Source of the DNA: Bdellovibrionota bacterium
GTDB taxonomy: Bacteria; Bdellovibrionota; UBA1018; CAIPTA01; JAALKR01
Assembly: GCA_965207455.1 (NCBI GenBank)
Contig: CBDBMJ010000003.1
Location: forward strand, 54,197 to 118,196
Length of the DNA: 64,000 nucleotides
Direction of reading: 5' to 3'
The position numbers were made by a program, and so were the translations under genes. Shown here piece after piece: positions 3,752 to 24,638 of the stretch; positions within the stretch are counted from its first letter, which is position 1; each line of letters opens with the position of its first letter. Below the pieces are notes generated by a model, which saw only the letters and a list, made by a program, of their open reading frames with translations, did no database searches and had not been told where the DNA came from.

Positions 3752-4246
3752 ATATGTTTAGGTTAACAGAAATAGAAAAAATATTTATAGAAAAGGGCTG
3801 TTCCTGCTAGGCAGTCAATTCATTAAAGAGCTGGCTGCCATAACAAGGAATTTATATAGGGTCAGCGAAGAGCTCGTTTTTTCTTCGTAAATACTGTAAT
3901 ATCGCCAACGTTTACACAACCGTAAGTAACTTCCAATGTCCATCTATCCCGAGAACTATTTTGACTATGGAAAAAGTTTTTATTTTCTAGACGCTCCCAC
4001 TCTGAAAAAAAGAACTCAATCCCTTTGTCCTGAAAAGCGAAATGGACAAAAAACTAGACCAGCTTTTTTTATTATTGCAGCAGTCTAAGAATGGAAAAGC
4101 GGCATGATTTCAACGCGATGCTCCTTGGTGCGTTTTCATTATGAGTCAATACGAGGCTTTCCACAATCGGCTAAATTATCATCTTTTTTCATTCGGGGGT
4201 GTTTCCATGGTGCTATTCAGAGTATGAATAGAGAAAAAGGAAAAAA

Positions 4247-5581
4247 ATGGACAAAATTTCCACAAGTCCTCTTTCAGGATTTCGAGACTTTCTACCTCAG
4301 GAAAGTGCTGCTCGCGCTTGGGCACTGGATACTATTGCAAAGGCCTATGGTGCTTATGGCTTTCAGCCCATCATAACTCCCAGTTGTGAGCGTTTGGCGA
4401 CCCTTCAGGGAAAGGGTGCTGGTCAGGAGAATGAGCATCTTATTTTTAAATTACAAAAGCGGGGGAGGTCGTTGGAAAAGGCTTTTACCCAGGCGACGCC
4501 TGAAAATTTAGACACTCTCAGCGACATGGGCTTGCGCTTTGATCTCACGCTCTTACTAGCGCGCTATTATGCCCATTTTCAGCTTCCTCAGCCCTTCAAG
4601 GTGTTTCAGTGCGGGCCTGTTTGGCGTGCCGAGCGTCCACAAAAGGGAAGGTATAGGGAGTTTTTTCAATGCGACGTGGATGTTCTCGGAAGCGCCTCCA
4701 TAGGAGCAGAGGTGGATTGTTTGCAAGCGATTGCTCTGGCCATGCACCAGATGGGTATTGGCAAGGTGGAATTTCATCTCAATGATCGACGTCTTTTGGA
4801 TGCCTTGGGCACAAATCTGGGTATTCCTCCTGATCAGTGGACGGGTGTACTGGTAACAATGGATAAGTTGGACAAGATAGGAATCGACGGTGTGACCCAG
4901 GAGTTGGGGAAAAAAATACCGAAGCCAGAAAAAATTATTAGCGCCTTTACTGGTCGCAAGACTTTAAGGGAATGGAGTGAAATTGCCCCCACAGCGGTTG
5001 ACAGTCTTGGGGAGATTTTTGCCTGCTTGGAGCCGACTCTAACTGAAAAGGATCAGTCCCTTCACTTTTCTCCCACTCTGGTGCGTGGGCAGAATTATTA
5101 TACGGGAACGATTTTTGAAATTCGCAAGCCTTCCCTAGGTTACTCCCTTGGCGGTGGTGGGCGCTATGATCGACTGCTGGAGTTGTTTGACGTTCCTTCC
5201 ACACCGGCGTTTGGCGGCAGTATTGGTTTTGAGAGGATAATCCCCCTTTTGTTGGAGAGCAAAGACAAACCTTTCGTGCTTCCCACGCCCCAAGTTTTCT
5301 TTCCTCTCTTTTCCTCAGGCCTCTATGGAAAGGTGAACGATTTGGCAGAAAAATTGCGCAAAAAGGATATAAGCGTAGATGTATTTCCCGATGCCGTGAA
5401 GCTCAAGCGACAGTTTCGGTATGCAGAGGCACGGGATATTCCCTATGTGGCTAGTATTGGTGAGAGTGAGTTAGACCAGGGGACAGTTACATGTAAGAAT
5501 ATGAAGACAGGCAAGGAAGAAACAATGGATGAAAGTGCATTTATTATAGAAATGGAAAAAAAATGTCGAAACAACCGTTAG
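4247..5581 (+). CDS. hisS: Histidine--tRNA ligase
   Basis: N-terminal GFRDFLPQE motif and class II motif VWRAERPQKGRYREFFQCD; 444 aa. Confidence 0.9.
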   Translation: MDKISTSPLSGFRDFLPQESAARAWALDTIAKAYGAYGFQPIITPSCERLATLQGKGAGQENEHLIFKLQKRGRSLEKAFTQATPENLDTLSDMGLRFDLTLLLARYYAHFQLPQPFKVFQCGPVWRAERPQKGRYREFFQCDVDVLGSASIGAEVDCLQAIALAMHQMGIGKVEFHLNDRRLLDALGTNLGIPPDQWTGVLVTMDKLDKIGIDGVTQELGKKIPKPEKIISAFTGRKTLREWSEIAPTAVDSLGEIFACLEPTLTEKDQSLHFSPTLVRGQNYYTGTIFEIRKPSLGYSLGGGGRYDRLLELFDVPSTPAFGGSIGFERIIPLLLESKDKPFVLPTPQVFFPLFSSGLYGKVNDLAEKLRKKDISVDVFPDAVKLKRQFRYAEARDIPYVASIGESELDQGTVTCKNMKTGKEETMDESAFIIEMEKKCRNNR

Positions 5582-19860: not shown

Positions 19861-20796
19861 ATGAAGTGGAAATTTCCTCCAGCTTTAGCGTCGGATCAAG
19901 CAATCGGGGTGGTGGCACCCTCGAGCTTTGTGGATAATACATTCTTGCAATCAGGGCAAAAAAAATGCAGTCAGCTGGGCTTAAAACTCCACTATGACGA
20001 ATCCATATTGCAGAAAAAATTGTTCTTCGCAGGCGAAGACTCTCAAAGGGCAGAGAATTTTATTGCTGCCCATACTAGCGAGACCAATAATATGCTTTGG
20101 TGTGCACGAGGAGGCTACGGGGCTGCTCGTATTCTTCCCCTATTGGAGGAAAAAAAATTCCATACAACACTCCAAGAAAATCCAAAACTCCTTATTGGTT
20201 ACTCGGACTCCACAGCTCTCTTTACCTATTACCTACAAAGGGGAGGAGTTTCCTGTTTACACGCTCCCTTAATGGCAGCTCCCAGTTGGTTAGATACGAC
20301 AGAAAAAGATTCTACCGACTTTCTCAATATCCTTCATGGAACCACAGGTCTGGGCAAAGCCTCCCATACCGCAAAATGGAATACCCTTTTTTTAGGAAAC
20401 CGTGGGACAGCTGAAGGAATTCTCATGGGAGGAAATATTAGCGTGCTATGTTCTTTAGTGGGTACGCCTTGGCAGCCCAAGTTTCAAGGAGGGATTGTGC
20501 TACTGGAAGATTGTAACGAACCCCCTTACCGGCTTCACCGTATGCTTACCCAATTGGATCAGGCCGGTTGTTTCGACGGAATACGAGGAGTAATTCTCGG
20601 CGACTGCACCCACGGAGTGCCCAAAGGCACTACCTGGGAAACGGTCTTTTCCGACATACTCGTTCCCAAATGTCTCGTGCTTCATGGTGCTCCCGTGGGA
20701 CACAGCAAGCGCAACAGCCCTCTCCCACTAGGGGTGCGAGCTAGAATCAACTCCCAAGGAAAACTGGAGTTATTGGAGCAGGTGGTAGGGCTCTAG
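19861..20796 (+). CDS. ldcA: LD-carboxypeptidase (S66 family)
   Basis: VVAPSS...LW...GG...LIGYSDSTAL nucleophile-elbow region; 311 aa. Confidence 0.75.
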   Translation: MKWKFPPALASDQAIGVVAPSSFVDNTFLQSGQKKCSQLGLKLHYDESILQKKLFFAGEDSQRAENFIAAHTSETNNMLWCARGGYGAARILPLLEEKKFHTTLQENPKLLIGYSDSTALFTYYLQRGGVSCLHAPLMAAPSWLDTTEKDSTDFLNILHGTTGLGKASHTAKWNTLFLGNRGTAEGILMGGNISVLCSLVGTPWQPKFQGGIVLLEDCNEPPYRLHRMLTQLDQAGCFDGIRGVILGDCTHGVPKGTTWETVFSDILVPKCLVLHGAPVGHSKRNSPLPLGVRARINSQGKLELLEQVVGL

Positions 20797-20806
20797 GATT
20801 ATTAAG
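20760..20806. repeat. Imperfect ~45-bp direct repeat, left copy (covers last 12 codons of ldcA)
   Basis: aaaactggagttattgg[agcaggtg]gtagggctctaggattatta versus 22216..22256 aaaactggagttattgg[g]ggtaggactctaggattatta. Confidence 0.75.
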
Positions 20807-21431
20807 AGACCCAAAATTTCTGTAATTCATCAATAAAGCTCTGGTAAGCCTCTTCAAAGCTAGGTGCTTCTTTGATTCCTGAAACAGCACTTGACCAACC
20901 GATCTTCAGAAGGCTCAAATCTATGGTTTTTAAATGCTGGATAAGATCTTTAGGAATAACTGTTTCTCGATAATTGAAACAAGCTTCAAGAGAACGAAAT
21001 AAATTGTTTTTTTCAGCTCTTGGAAGAAAGTAGGATAAGTCAAATATATCCTTTGAGCGTGAATTGTACTTTCCAAGATCCACTAGTGCATGAATTTTTT
21101 CTGCAATCATTGTTTCTATAGGATAAACAAACCAAGTCAGTTCATTTTCTCCAATCAGCTCTGGTGTTTTAATTTGAAGAGGAGAAGGAACAATAGGATC
21201 ACCAATTCCTAGGTCAAATTGAATAATCTGGAACTTTTTTATATTTTTAGGTATCTCGCCAATCCCAGCACGAAATACTTGTCGAACTCCACCATACTCG
21301 CCCTGAGTTTTAAGATCTATTTCTTTTTCAAACCTAAACCAAACAGCATCATTAAAAGTTTTTTCTACGACTACCTTAACAGCATCAAGATCAATTGTAT
21401 ACCTGCTGGATTTATAAATACGTAGTCCCAC
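20802..21431 (-). CDS. abiEii: AbiEii/DUF1814 nucleotidyltransferase toxin (type IV TA / abortive infection); N-terminus ambiguous
   Basis: IETMIAEKIHALVDLGKYNSRSKDIFDL matches the AbiEii signature. First canonical start is GTG at 21431, but the in-frame upstream 33 codons encode ...LVFKGGYVGL (the conserved GG nucleotide-binding motif) with no ATG/GTG/TTG; in-frame stop at 21531. Confidence 0.6.
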   Translation of the reverse strand: MGLRIYKSSRYTIDLDAVKVVVEKTFNDAVWFRFEKEIDLKTQGEYGGVRQVFRAGIGEIPKNIKKFQIIQFDLGIGDPIVPSPLQIKTPELIGENELTWFVYPIETMIAEKIHALVDLGKYNSRSKDIFDLSYFLPRAEKNNLFRSLEACFNYRETVIPKDLIQHLKTIDLSLLKIGWSSAVSGIKEAPSFEEAYQSFIDELQKFWVS

Positions 21432-21557
21432 ATAGCCACCCTTGAAAACAAGAGATTTGTAGAGTGTTGCATTTGATGTAATTCTGACAACTAAGATTAT
21501 TTTTTTTAGCCCAATTTGAAAGCTTCTGTTTTATCGAGATGCTCTGATTCTTTATAC

Positions 21558-22124
21558 TCATAAAATGATGGCCTCCCAATATTTATCAAAGGTTTTTTTT
21601 AGGTTTAGTGCAGTTGCCATTTTTCCAAGTTTCGTTTCTGTAGTAAGGTCATCTTTAAGAGCACGTCTTGTTGCATTTATCGCAATTCTAAGACCGAGTT
21701 TCGTTGCAAATTTTAGTGATTCAATAAGTGTGCGCTCAATATTTGTGATTTTAAAGCATCCTCGATCTTCGATTCCTTTAGTAAAAGGTGTGCTTGTTCT
21801 AAGACATTTATATTTTTTGCGTTCATTTTTTTTTGCTTGAGGTACGATAAGCCAAACTTGCTGAGGAGCCTGATCAATGAGTCCGTAATGAAAAAGAGCA
21901 GAGAGCCCACTTACGGCAGCATCTGGTCCAAAATACTTGTATGCCATAGCAAAATCCAGCTCTTCTGGATCAATGGAAGACTTTGGATGCATATAAAGAC
22001 CACGATCAATTCGTAGGAGCTTTTCCTGCTTCACCCACCTTGAAAGCGTGTGTCGCCCAATGCCCGCGCTGCTTTGAGCTTCTTTCGCATTGAATATTCC
22101 AAGTTTTTTTAGTTTGCTAGGCAT
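21558..22124 (-). CDS. abiEi: AbiEi antitoxin / transcriptional regulator
   Basis: N-terminal wHTH LGIFNAKEAQSSAGIGRHTLSRWVKQEKLLRIDRGLY typical of AbiEi_4; 188 aa; directly upstream of abiEii. Confidence 0.65.
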   Translation of the reverse strand: MPSKLKKLGIFNAKEAQSSAGIGRHTLSRWVKQEKLLRIDRGLYMHPKSSIDPEELDFAMAYKYFGPDAAVSGLSALFHYGLIDQAPQQVWLIVPQAKKNERKKYKCLRTSTPFTKGIEDRGCFKITNIERTLIESLKFATKLGLRIAINATRRALKDDLTTETKLGKMATALNLKKTFDKYWEAIIL

Positions 22125-22136
22125 CTTATTCTATTA

Positions 22137-22182
22137 TGCACCAAATCCGACATTTTTCAACAAAAATGTCGGATTTGGTGCA
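22137..22182. promoter_or_regulatory. Perfect 21-bp inverted repeat with 4-nt loop, 13 nt upstream of abiEi start (candidate AbiEi operator and/or terminator of upstream lipoprotein gene)
   Basis: tgcaccaaatccgacattttt-caac-aaaaatgtcggatttggtgca; arms are exact reverse complements. Confidence 0.55.
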
Positions 22183-22215
22183 TATACGATAGCAGCCATG
22201 GAGCATAAGTACCTA

Positions 22216-22256
22216 AAAACTGGAGTTATTGGGGGTAGGACTCTAGGATTATTAGG
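22216..22256. repeat. Imperfect direct repeat, right copy (ldcA-tail remnant overlapping lipoprotein stop)
   Basis: See left copy 20760..20806. Confidence 0.75.
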
Positions 22257-23004
22257 GTAGGGGCCACAAGCGAAACACGCTTTCTGTTTTCGATATCCAC
22301 TCCCCCCGTTCAAAGGGTGTTTTCACGGTATAAGGTGATTTAGCAAAACGGAAAAGCAGGGGCGGGTAGGTTTTATCTTCTTTTTGCCACTGGGGATTTT
22401 GTCTTCCTTTTGCGTGACGAAAGTTTAAGAAGTCGAAGTGTATGTACACCTCCTTTGTGTTTCCAGAGGCAAGAACTCGCCCATCTGGAGTAAGTCGCTT
22501 GGAGTAATCTATTGACGGCAGGCCCATTCGATTCATGGTAATTTCGTCTTTAATCTGAGTATATTCACAGAGATTTATATTTTCTTTTTGGGTAATATGA
22601 ACACGTCCGTGGCTCACGCCCCCATCCTTTCGTCGACCAAATACTTCAAAAGATTTTCTATTACTCAGTTTCTTTCCCTCCTTTCCCCAAAGTTCGTAAA
22701 GAAAAACCATGGACTCTTCTGGAAATAAACCGCAAGAAGGAATTTTATATACTTTCAGAAGTTTCCTGCCACCAAGGAAGCTTACTTCTATTTTCTCTTC
22801 TGTATGGCGCTCGTCGGTTGCAGCTAGGCTATCGCTTAAGGTATTTAGAGTGCCCTTCCAAGTGCCCTCTAGTTTTTCAAAAGAGAAGCTCTTCCAACTT
22901 TGGTTCATTTTGGTACACTCAAAGCATAAAGAATTTAGTCTTTGCCCCGCACAGCCACTCAAAAATAAACCCAATACGCCAATAGAAAAAAGTAAACGCA
23001 CCAT
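22252..23004 (-). CDS. Lipoprotein of unknown function
   Basis: Lipobox LFLSGCAG; 250 aa; no family recognised; sits between the AbiE and HipBA modules. Confidence 0.5.
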   Translation of the reverse strand: MVRLLFSIGVLGLFLSGCAGQRLNSLCFECTKMNQSWKSFSFEKLEGTWKGTLNTLSDSLAATDERHTEEKIEVSFLGGRKLLKVYKIPSCGLFPEESMVFLYELWGKEGKKLSNRKSFEVFGRRKDGGVSHGRVHITQKENINLCEYTQIKDEITMNRMGLPSIDYSKRLTPDGRVLASGNTKEVYIHFDFLNFRHAKGRQNPQWQKEDKTYPPLLFRFAKSPYTVKTPFERGEWISKTESVFRLWPLP

Positions 23005-23092: not shown

Positions 23093-24313
23093 TCATGAAT
23101 ACATTTTTTTTGCTTTTTTTAACTCTGCATGTTCGAACGCTGAGGCCATGCGATCGATTTCTTTTTTACTTAAGCCAAATTGTTGGGCAATATCGCGCCA
23201 GCTAGAAACAGCCGTTGCCACCTGCTTCACAATCTTATACGCTTGATTTTTTTCTAGTCTAAATTCGTCAATAACAGATAGAGCTGTATCAATAGAGGCT
23301 GTTGAGTCATTGAAGCTAATTGAAGTTGAAAGGATACGGTCCTTTATGTCGATGGGATTTGGGTTTATATCGTAAGCAGGTGAGAGGCGCCAGCCTTTAT
23401 GTCGTTCATATAAAAAACCATGGTTTCGCAAATGATCGTCGGTATTAGAAATAAGTACGGTGAAGACAATCCTGCGCCAAAGTTCTGCCATATCTTGATC
23501 GGGTTTTTCACCATACTGTATAAGGGCATGGGCGATCTCAAGATAGCTGCGCCTATCATTATCTTTTGCACCAAGCATACTCATGGCAGAGAGGAATGGA
23601 ATGCGTTTATTACCTATTCGATCAAAGCGCTGTATAATGAGAACAGGTTTTTTCTGGATATTTTCTAAGCGCACTTCAGGGATCTGTAGACCAGCTTTTT
23701 GTGCCAGTTTAAGAGCCACAGCTTCCCATACAACAACATTATATTCATCATCTTTTTTAGGAAATTTAGCAATAGCGAGACGACCATTTTTATCATACAC
23801 AGATACCTTTGGTCTTGCACCACCAAGAGAAGAGCCTGGAGCAAGAAGTATTTTTAAATCATCCTCTGTTTCATTATCATTTAAGAAATTCTCGGAGGCA
23901 GACAAAAGCCTTGGTAAATCAATAAGTGGTGGAATGCTTGTTCTGTTTTTTCGAGTTAAGTATGGTCCTTGGGATTGCAGGGAAAAGCGCAGCGCGCCCT
24001 GACGTGATTCATCGTTGACGGCAAGGAGATAATCTATTTCTAAAAGAGGTTTCATGGCTTGCCCTTTCCTTTTTGCACGCATACTTTCAAAGCGCTGAAT
24101 GAGAATATGTCCCCAGCGATCTGGAGCAGAGTCTCCAATTGCGCCAAATAAAGCCTGACCGGGGCATGTATAAAAAGCACCCTCGGTGAGTTGCAAGGCC
24201 GGATCAATGGCAAATCTTTCGCGATTCTTGCGCTGGTGACACCATAATTTACCCACTTGCTGGCGCTCATCACCAAGTTGGATAGAAACATAAATTTGCT
24301 TACTATTTGCCAT
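23093..24313 (-). CDS. hipA: HipA-family Ser/Thr kinase toxin (type II TA)
   Basis: N-terminal couple_hipA-like domain (IYVSIQLGDERQQVGKLW) and HipA_C kinase core; start taken at MANSKQ (24313), overlapping the hipB stop by 11 nt. Confidence 0.75.
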   Translation of the reverse strand: MANSKQIYVSIQLGDERQQVGKLWCHQRKNRERFAIDPALQLTEGAFYTCPGQALFGAIGDSAPDRWGHILIQRFESMRAKRKGQAMKPLLEIDYLLAVNDESRQGALRFSLQSQGPYLTRKNRTSIPPLIDLPRLLSASENFLNDNETEDDLKILLAPGSSLGGARPKVSVYDKNGRLAIAKFPKKDDEYNVVVWEAVALKLAQKAGLQIPEVRLENIQKKPVLIIQRFDRIGNKRIPFLSAMSMLGAKDNDRRSYLEIAHALIQYGEKPDQDMAELWRRIVFTVLISNTDDHLRNHGFLYERHKGWRLSPAYDINPNPIDIKDRILSTSISFNDSTASIDTALSVIDEFRLEKNQAYKIVKQVATAVSSWRDIAQQFGLSKKEIDRMASAFEHAELKKAKKMYS

Positions 24314-24638
24314 TGTTCTCTCGATTGATCCGAGGAAACCGAATGCGTTTTGGCAGGTTTTCTGTTTCCAGATCCAGTCCAATAATATCGCGGTGTGGGC
24401 CGGCTATATTCTGCAAGTGATCAGTCATGCCTAGTACGAATAGAGCACAGGCATATGATCCCATTGAAACAGAGGGCTCACCTCTTTCAATTTTGCCTAA
24501 AGTTATAACTGAAAAGCCTGCACGTTCAGCCATAATTTTTGTGGGGATACGCCGTCGTCGTCGAGCGACAGAGATATTTTCACCAAGCTCACGCATGGCT
24601 CTTTTTGCAGGAATGGGTAATCGTGGTTTACGTTTCAT
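24303..24638 (-). CDS. hipB: HipB-like XRE-family HTH antitoxin
   Basis: HTH ISVARRRRRIPTKIMAERAGFSVITLGKIERGE; 111 aa; translationally coupled to hipA. Confidence 0.7.
   Translation of the reverse strand: MKRKPRLPIPAKRAMRELGENISVARRRRRIPTKIMAERAGFSVITLGKIERGEPSVSMGSYACALFVLGMTDHLQNIAGPHRDIIGLDLETENLPKRIRFPRINRENNGK

Follow-up and report, generated by a model that had tools for sequence, protein, structure and literature searches.

The abiE operon of the stretch of DNA analysed here (64,000 nt, hereafter the window) very probably carries an abiEii toxin gene that has been pseudogenised by two deletions, beside an intact abiEi antitoxin/regulator gene. The parts of the toxin gene and the site presumed to govern its translation are as follows:

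20802..21431, minus strand: annotated ORF of 209 aa with a GTG start (MGLRIYKSSRYTIDLD...), the downstream part of the abiEii body
20802..21481, minus strand: abiEii body in the +1 frame, carrying motif I FKGG, RYTIDLD, motifs III and IV and the stop codon
21369..21381, minus strand: 39-nt in-frame deletion (13 residues) directly after GATGCT (DLDA), its exact junction ambiguous within 13 nt
21481..21482, minus strand: junction of the 41-nt frameshifting deletion, placed by DNA alignments with five relatives and with the contig of the nearest relative (L081)
21482..21561, minus strand: 5' fragment of abiEii, the ancestral ATG and 26 2/3 codons encoding MSIKNQSISIKQKLSNWAKKNNLSCQ(N)
21572..21577, minus strand: Shine-Dalgarno-like GGGAGG within conserved abiEi codons for WEA, 10 nt before the toxin ATG

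Upstream of GTG 21431 the frame of the toxin body remains open to 21530, its 33 codons reading NRSFQIGLKKIILVVRITSNATLYKSLVFKGGYV / ...LKKIILVVRITSNATLYKSLVFKGGYV with no ATG, GTG or TTG among them, and is closed by a TAA at 21533-21531, 27 nt from the abiEi stop codon (TGA, 21560-21558). A first-pass annotation of this DNA had reported the GG motif upstream of GTG 21431, the absence of these three start codons before the stop and the 27-nt stop spacing, and all of these observations hold. Its description of GTG 21431 as the only canonical start codon is correct within the frame of the toxin body but not beyond it, as three-frame translation revealed an ATG at 21561-21559 in a different frame, overlapping the abiEi stop as ATGA. 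This ATG opens a 50-codon ORF (21412..21561, MSIKNQSISIKQKLSNWAKKNNLSCQNYIKC...*) that ends at 21412 and whose first 27 residues, MSIKNQSISIKQKLSNWAKKNNLSCQN, are the conserved AbiEii N-terminus. In the protein alignment full-length homologues all open with M..K.Q..SI.QKLSN.A.K...SYQN, the same sequence as that of the small ATG-frame ORF, and in related loci the toxin start likewise overlaps the abiEi stop, as ATGA, TTGA, GTGA or TAATG. DNA alignments of the Shine-Dalgarno-like site show TGGGA (columns 23-27) and G (column 29) to be invariant in all relatives examined, with A or G at column 28. The position of GGGAGG within the abiEi codons for the C-terminal YWEAI suggests a dual constraint of coding and translation coupling at this site. 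The non-canonical start proposed in the first-pass annotation is not supported, since the ancestral ATG is still present in the other frame with its ATGA overlap and with GGGAGG 10 nt upstream.

A search of 5.8 billion proteins using a provisional fused toxin sequence as query returned the annotated 209-aa product (P0001) and hundreds of AbiEii homologues, mostly of 275-290 aa, the nearest of which (P0002) is 65% identical. When P0002 was compared with the window by tblastn, residues 1-27 matched in the ATG frame (67% identity) and residues 37-278 in the next frame (69% identity). Alignment with full-length AbiEii homologues, a check advised in the first-pass annotation, gave a start-to-KGG distance of 39 residues in the window copy as opposed to the typical 53 (105 of 110 full-length homologues). 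Between KGG and DxD the window has the spacing of 17 seen in 115 homologues, whilst the distance from DxD to WF is 17 residues in the window copy and 30 in 114 of 115 homologues. Both the 41-nt and the 39-nt gap are found in the window only, every aligned relative having both segments at the protein and the DNA level. The first gap lies between ...TGTCAGAA and TTACATCAAAT..., 80 nt after the toxin start codon, and shifts the frame by +1; past 21482 the frame of the 5' fragment runs out of register to TAA 21414-21412. The codons lost here are those of approximately 14 residues, represented in P0002 by VAMTFLLERLVARI, that form most of helix alpha2. In L081 the missing 41 nt read GTGG...CGAAT with AAT on both sides, a microhomology that probably points to slippage or recombination as the origin of the deletion. 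Together the deleted segments contain 8 of 79 columns conserved at a level of at least 90%, including the FLxERL residues. The toxin is thus disrupted beside an intact antitoxin, as the first-pass annotation had suggested in substance, although not in the anatomy that it envisaged: the lesions are an internal 41-nt deletion and a previously unnoticed 39-nt in-frame deletion, not an N-terminal erosion. A frameshift restoring an upstream ATG, which it had named as a finding against its reading, was essentially what was found, its cause being the loss of 41 nt rather than an error of one base in sequencing. One further feature of the 5' fragment was considered as the lesion:

21500..21507, minus strand: run of eight A residues (A8) inside the 5' fragment, where alone a slip of one base could bring the frames together; judged incidental

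A single-base slip at A8 was rejected as the lesion, given that removal of one A leaves 14 residues missing from the alignment; in the DNA alignments the ATG frame is still homologous through NNLSCQN, beyond the A run, hence a 41-nt deletion.

The identity of the toxin remnant is clear from its profile matches and motifs. The stop-free frame of 242 codons matches the Pfam AbiEii family PF08843 with 68.9 bits (cut-off 22.5) and the PADLOC AbiEii profile PDLC02288 with 105.8 bits, the latter covered only from profile position 51 onward; a search of NCBIfam with the toxin gave no match. Motifs I-IV (FKGG, RYTIDLD, AEKIHAL and SKDIFD) each align to invariant columns, with the GG codons at 21440-21435 and the DxD at 21392-21384. 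An uninterrupted full-length toxin ORF is not present: the gene is split over two frames with the 39-nt in-frame deletion in addition, and motif I FKGG falls outside any ORF with a canonical start in its own frame. To locate the losses on a structure, the deletions were mapped onto an AlphaFold2 model of P0002 (83-sequence alignment, pLDDT 93, pTM 0.90), which has helices at 3-20 and 25-42, a strand at 51-54 followed by the GG motif, a strand with the DxD at 71-76 and a helix at 81-92. The 41-nt deletion corresponds to about residues 28-41, 14 of the 18 residues of helix alpha2, with the loss of nearly invariant T, F, L, E, R, L and R residues. With the 39-nt deletion the DxD strand loses its end, and the loop after it and most of helix 81-92 are gone as well. 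The solved S. agalactiae AbiEii (PDB 9HLO chain B) has both deleted segments, and in it the start of alpha2 touches AbiEi (preprint 10.64898/2026.01.19.700257). Toxicity of the S. agalactiae protein is abolished by each of the single substitutions G49A (motif I), R63A, D67A and D69A (motif II), K173A and R180A (motif III) and D192A (motif IV), with G49A causing loss of both toxicity and GTP binding (PMC3985639). The predicted product of GTG 21431 is without motif I (GG) and all that lies upstream of it, and a product joining the two frames is without alpha2 and the 13 residues after the DxD. By analogy with this mutagenesis, performed on a protein of 25-30% identity, we infer that no active nucleotidyltransferase or toxin would be made from the window locus.

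The antitoxin gene and its control region show no such damage:

21558..22124, minus strand: abiEi, intact antitoxin/autoregulator gene, 188 aa (Pfam AbiEi_4 PF13338, 34.7 bits)
22133..22160, minus strand: promoter-like TTGAAA-16-CATAAT, 10 of 12 matches, by consensus only, overlapping the inverted repeat upstream of abiEi
22135..22184, no strand: perfect 23-nt inverted repeat, candidate AbiEi operator, TATGCACCAAATCCGACATTTTT / AAAAATGTCGGATTTGGTGCATA with a 4-nt spacer, just upstream of the abiEi ATG (22124)

The window abiEi covers positions 15-194 of the 198 positions of the PADLOC AbiEi profile, and its product aligns end to end with those of four relatives, 68 columns being invariant in all five and the only gap one of 2 residues. 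The Pfam and PADLOC matches and this alignment are consistent with a full-length AbiEi having both an N-terminal wHTH and a C-terminal antitoxicity domain; the NCBIfam match to AbiEi was below threshold only, and the protein cluster of this AbiEi is a singleton. The related locus L035 has a 21-nt inverted repeat that shares with the window its spacer length of 4 nt and the core AAAAATGTCG, and L001 has one of 17 nt. S. agalactiae AbiEi is a repressor of transcription that binds inverted repeats extending to 23 bp with an N3 spacer (PMC3985639), and by analogy the 23-nt inverted repeat of the window is probably the AbiEi operator. Promoter-like sites are no more numerous in this region than in shuffled sequence. 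With AbiEi, the promoter-like site and the inverted repeat all intact, the regulator half of the module looks functional and AbiEi may still be able to repress its own promoter.

The arrangement suggests a course of events in which the toxin ancestrally started at ATG 21561, the ATGA overlap giving translational coupling with abiEi. A deletion of 41 nt at a point 80 nt into the gene, with short AAT repeats as its probable endpoints, would have placed the body in the +1 frame with the loss of most of alpha2, and a 39-nt in-frame deletion would have removed the end of the DxD strand, the next loop and most of the following helix. Ribosomes starting at ATG 21561 would now produce a 50-residue peptide ending at 21412. 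Conservation of the 226 remaining toxin codons matches that of intact homologues: over 79 columns conserved at a level of at least 90% among 104 full-length homologues the window remnant has a single substitution, and over the same columns the homologues have a mean of 2.2, with at least one in 86 of the 104. This lack of further decay suggests that the damage is probably recent, although it would also fit continued selection on a product. The remnant might, for example, be kept as a dead AbiEii fragment, arising by reinitiation at GTG 21431 or slippage at A8, that binds and modulates AbiEi, or AbiEi and its operator might be kept as an 'anti-addiction' or regulatory module against incoming AbiE elements. 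Such retention is very unlikely, the sole hint of it being the lack of excess substitutions at conserved sites.

Related loci, counted among the best 80 of 138 confirmed matches, derive almost entirely from Bdellovibrionales, Pseudobdellovibrionaceae and kin, and nearly all are from metagenome-assembled genomes (MAGs). The toxin is intact in 62 of these 80 by a strict test and in most of the others on inspection, and is disrupted, independently, in about 6 of the 80:

L005, 4001-4825: second Gly codon of the GG motif turned from GGA into the stop TGA
L028, 4001-4822: stop at the invariant Trp
L029, approximately 3860-4723: stop in the 5' region
L035, 4001-4839: frameshift
L042, approximately 1900-2780: stop in the 5' region
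L051, 380-1252: frameshift, with most of abiEi gone too

Loss of the toxin appears to be recurrent in this Bdellovibrionales-type clade, although some of these cases may be MAG sequencing errors. The same concern extends to the window, which is probably also derived from a metagenome-assembled genome: the true toxin could have approximately 278 codons, with both gaps introduced during assembly or consensus polishing, and the single frameshifts and stops of some related loci, if errors, would be in keeping with this. The gaps themselves make such an artefact very unlikely. They take out 41 and 39 nt of coding sequence that is unique and not repetitive, as opposed to homopolymer-length errors, two separate clean gaps 100 nt apart are an atypical error pattern, and the first is flanked by the AAT microhomology in the nearest relative, as in a genuine deletion.

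Two further explanations would have the remaining sequence translated into a useful protein, and for both the undecayed toxin body would fit continued use. A +1 slip, or the transcriptional loss of one A, at A8 would yield a 252-aa protein (MSIKNQSISIKQKLSNWAKK-IILVVRITSN...FKGG...) retaining some activity; the run lies within a 116-nt overlap in which both frames are open, and removal of one A does give a continuous ORF from the ATG. The joined product would nevertheless be without alpha2 and the 13 residues after the DxD, both of invariant length across the family. Moreover, the A8 at 21507-21500 is not special, A8/T8 runs occurring about once per 2 kb of the window (36 A/T runs in 64 kb, 32 of 8 and four of 9, with two within abiEi at 21593 and 21826), neither a comparable run nor a frameshift is seen here in relatives, and no stimulatory element is evident. 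Recoding is for these reasons highly improbable. The production and use of a truncated protein, starting either at GTG 21431 (209 aa, the ORF of the public annotation P0001), where the end of the 50-codon ORF 17 nt downstream makes reinitiation conceivable, or at a non-canonical ATA, ATC or ATT upstream of the GG motif, is equally improbable, as the former product has no motif I and G49A alone kills S. agalactiae AbiEii toxicity (PMC3985639), whilst the latter would have neither a Shine-Dalgarno sequence nor alpha1 and alpha2 and would keep the 13-residue deletion. A non-canonical start upstream of the GG motif was also rejected as an account of how the toxin begins: functional homologues beginning at the GG motif, another finding that the first-pass annotation had set against its own reading, were not encountered, the full-length homologues starting about 53 residues before KGG, and the true ATG in the other frame renders such a start unnecessary.

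Pseudogenisation of the toxin by the two deletions is ordinary toxin-antitoxin decay and implies no new biology or mechanism. For annotation it means that the 209-aa 'AbiEii' from GTG 21431 should become a pseudogene spanning 20802..21561, and that the locus does not belong in tallies of active AbiE defence or toxin-antitoxin systems. In degenerate toxin-antitoxin loci and orphan antitoxins the toxin is mutated and inactive whilst the antitoxin/repressor gene is intact. Compared with these the window locus is nothing unusual, being at an early stage with two deletions only, and it provides a clean example of early decay of such a module in which the toxin goes first and the antitoxin/repressor is spared.

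In its ancestral organisation the locus resembles the S. agalactiae AbiE system: in both, an antitoxin gene leads a two-gene operon and shares the 4 nt ATGA with the toxin gene that follows, and S. agalactiae abiEi and abiEii are bicistronic with an overlap of 4 nt (PMC3985639). Further likenesses are a COG5340-type AbiEi with an N-terminal winged-helix domain, a DUF1814/PF08843 toxin with the motifs KGG, RxTxDxD (with the same spacing), AEKxHA and KDxxD, and a long inverted repeat (23 nt with a short spacer) over the promoter. The window differs from S. agalactiae in that its toxin ORF is interrupted by the 41-nt frameshifting deletion and has lost 13 further residues, and identity to the S. 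agalactiae AbiEii of 9HLO is low (phmmer E = 5.5e-22). Much closer is the AbiEii clade of Bdellovibrionales/Pseudobdellovibrionaceae (P0002-P0120; L001-L083), whose toxins are 50-69% and AbiEi proteins 52-56% identical to those of the window, and which has gene order, start/stop overlap and inverted-repeat core in common with it; the two deletions distinguish the window copy from this clade. AbiEii belongs to the same DUF1814 nucleotidyltransferase superfamily as the toxins of the M. tuberculosis MenAT systems (MenT1/3/4, with MenA antitoxins), although the proteins are distant, AbiEii and MenT proteins being 16-17% identical (preprint 10.64898/2026.01.19.700257). By analogy with MenAT an intact copy would be expected to add nucleotides to tRNA 3' ends and to be neutralised by antitoxin-induced auto-phosphorylation of the motif II Thr/Ser, for which the T of RYTIDLD in the window would be the equivalent residue. 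In contrast to MenAT, the window copy is disrupted.

The abiE module lies between an LD-carboxypeptidase-like gene and a 250-aa ORF, and is bracketed by a pair of direct repeats:

20760..20804, no strand: 45-nt copy 1 of the direct repeat, directly following the abiEii stop
22216..22254, no strand: 39-nt copy 2 of the direct repeat, lying upstream of the abiE promoter region and abutting the stop of ORF 22252..23004

The repeats, which occur nowhere else in the window, consist of identical 17-nt and 92%-identical 24-nt blocks with a 6-nt indel, and enclose a module of 1.45 kb. Read on the plus strand, copy 1 supplies the final residues and the stop (KLELLEQVVGL*) of the LD-carboxypeptidase-like gene (19861..20796), and copy 2 would read KLELLGVGL* on the same strand. 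This looks like insertion of an abiE cassette at the 3' end of the LD-carboxypeptidase-like gene with target duplication, in the manner of an att site. Of the adjacent ORFs that were examined none was noted as an integrase, the flanking direct repeat had no match in the relatives' loci, and Rfam gave zero matches at gathering thresholds over the whole 64-kb window. The 250-aa ORF (22252-23004, minus strand) encodes a protein with a hydrophobic, lipoprotein-like N-terminus (MVRLLFSIGVLGLFLSGCAG...) and no Pfam match. A second toxin-antitoxin-like module is located at 23093-24638 (minus strand), comprising an ORF of 429 aa that matches the HipA_C kinase domain (E = 4e-50) but has no Pfam match over its first approximately 180 residues, and an overlapping upstream ORF of 111 aa, also with no Pfam match. 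Beyond the HipA_C gene are housekeeping genes encoding PhoU, an ABC-transporter ATPase and E1 dehydrogenase subunits.
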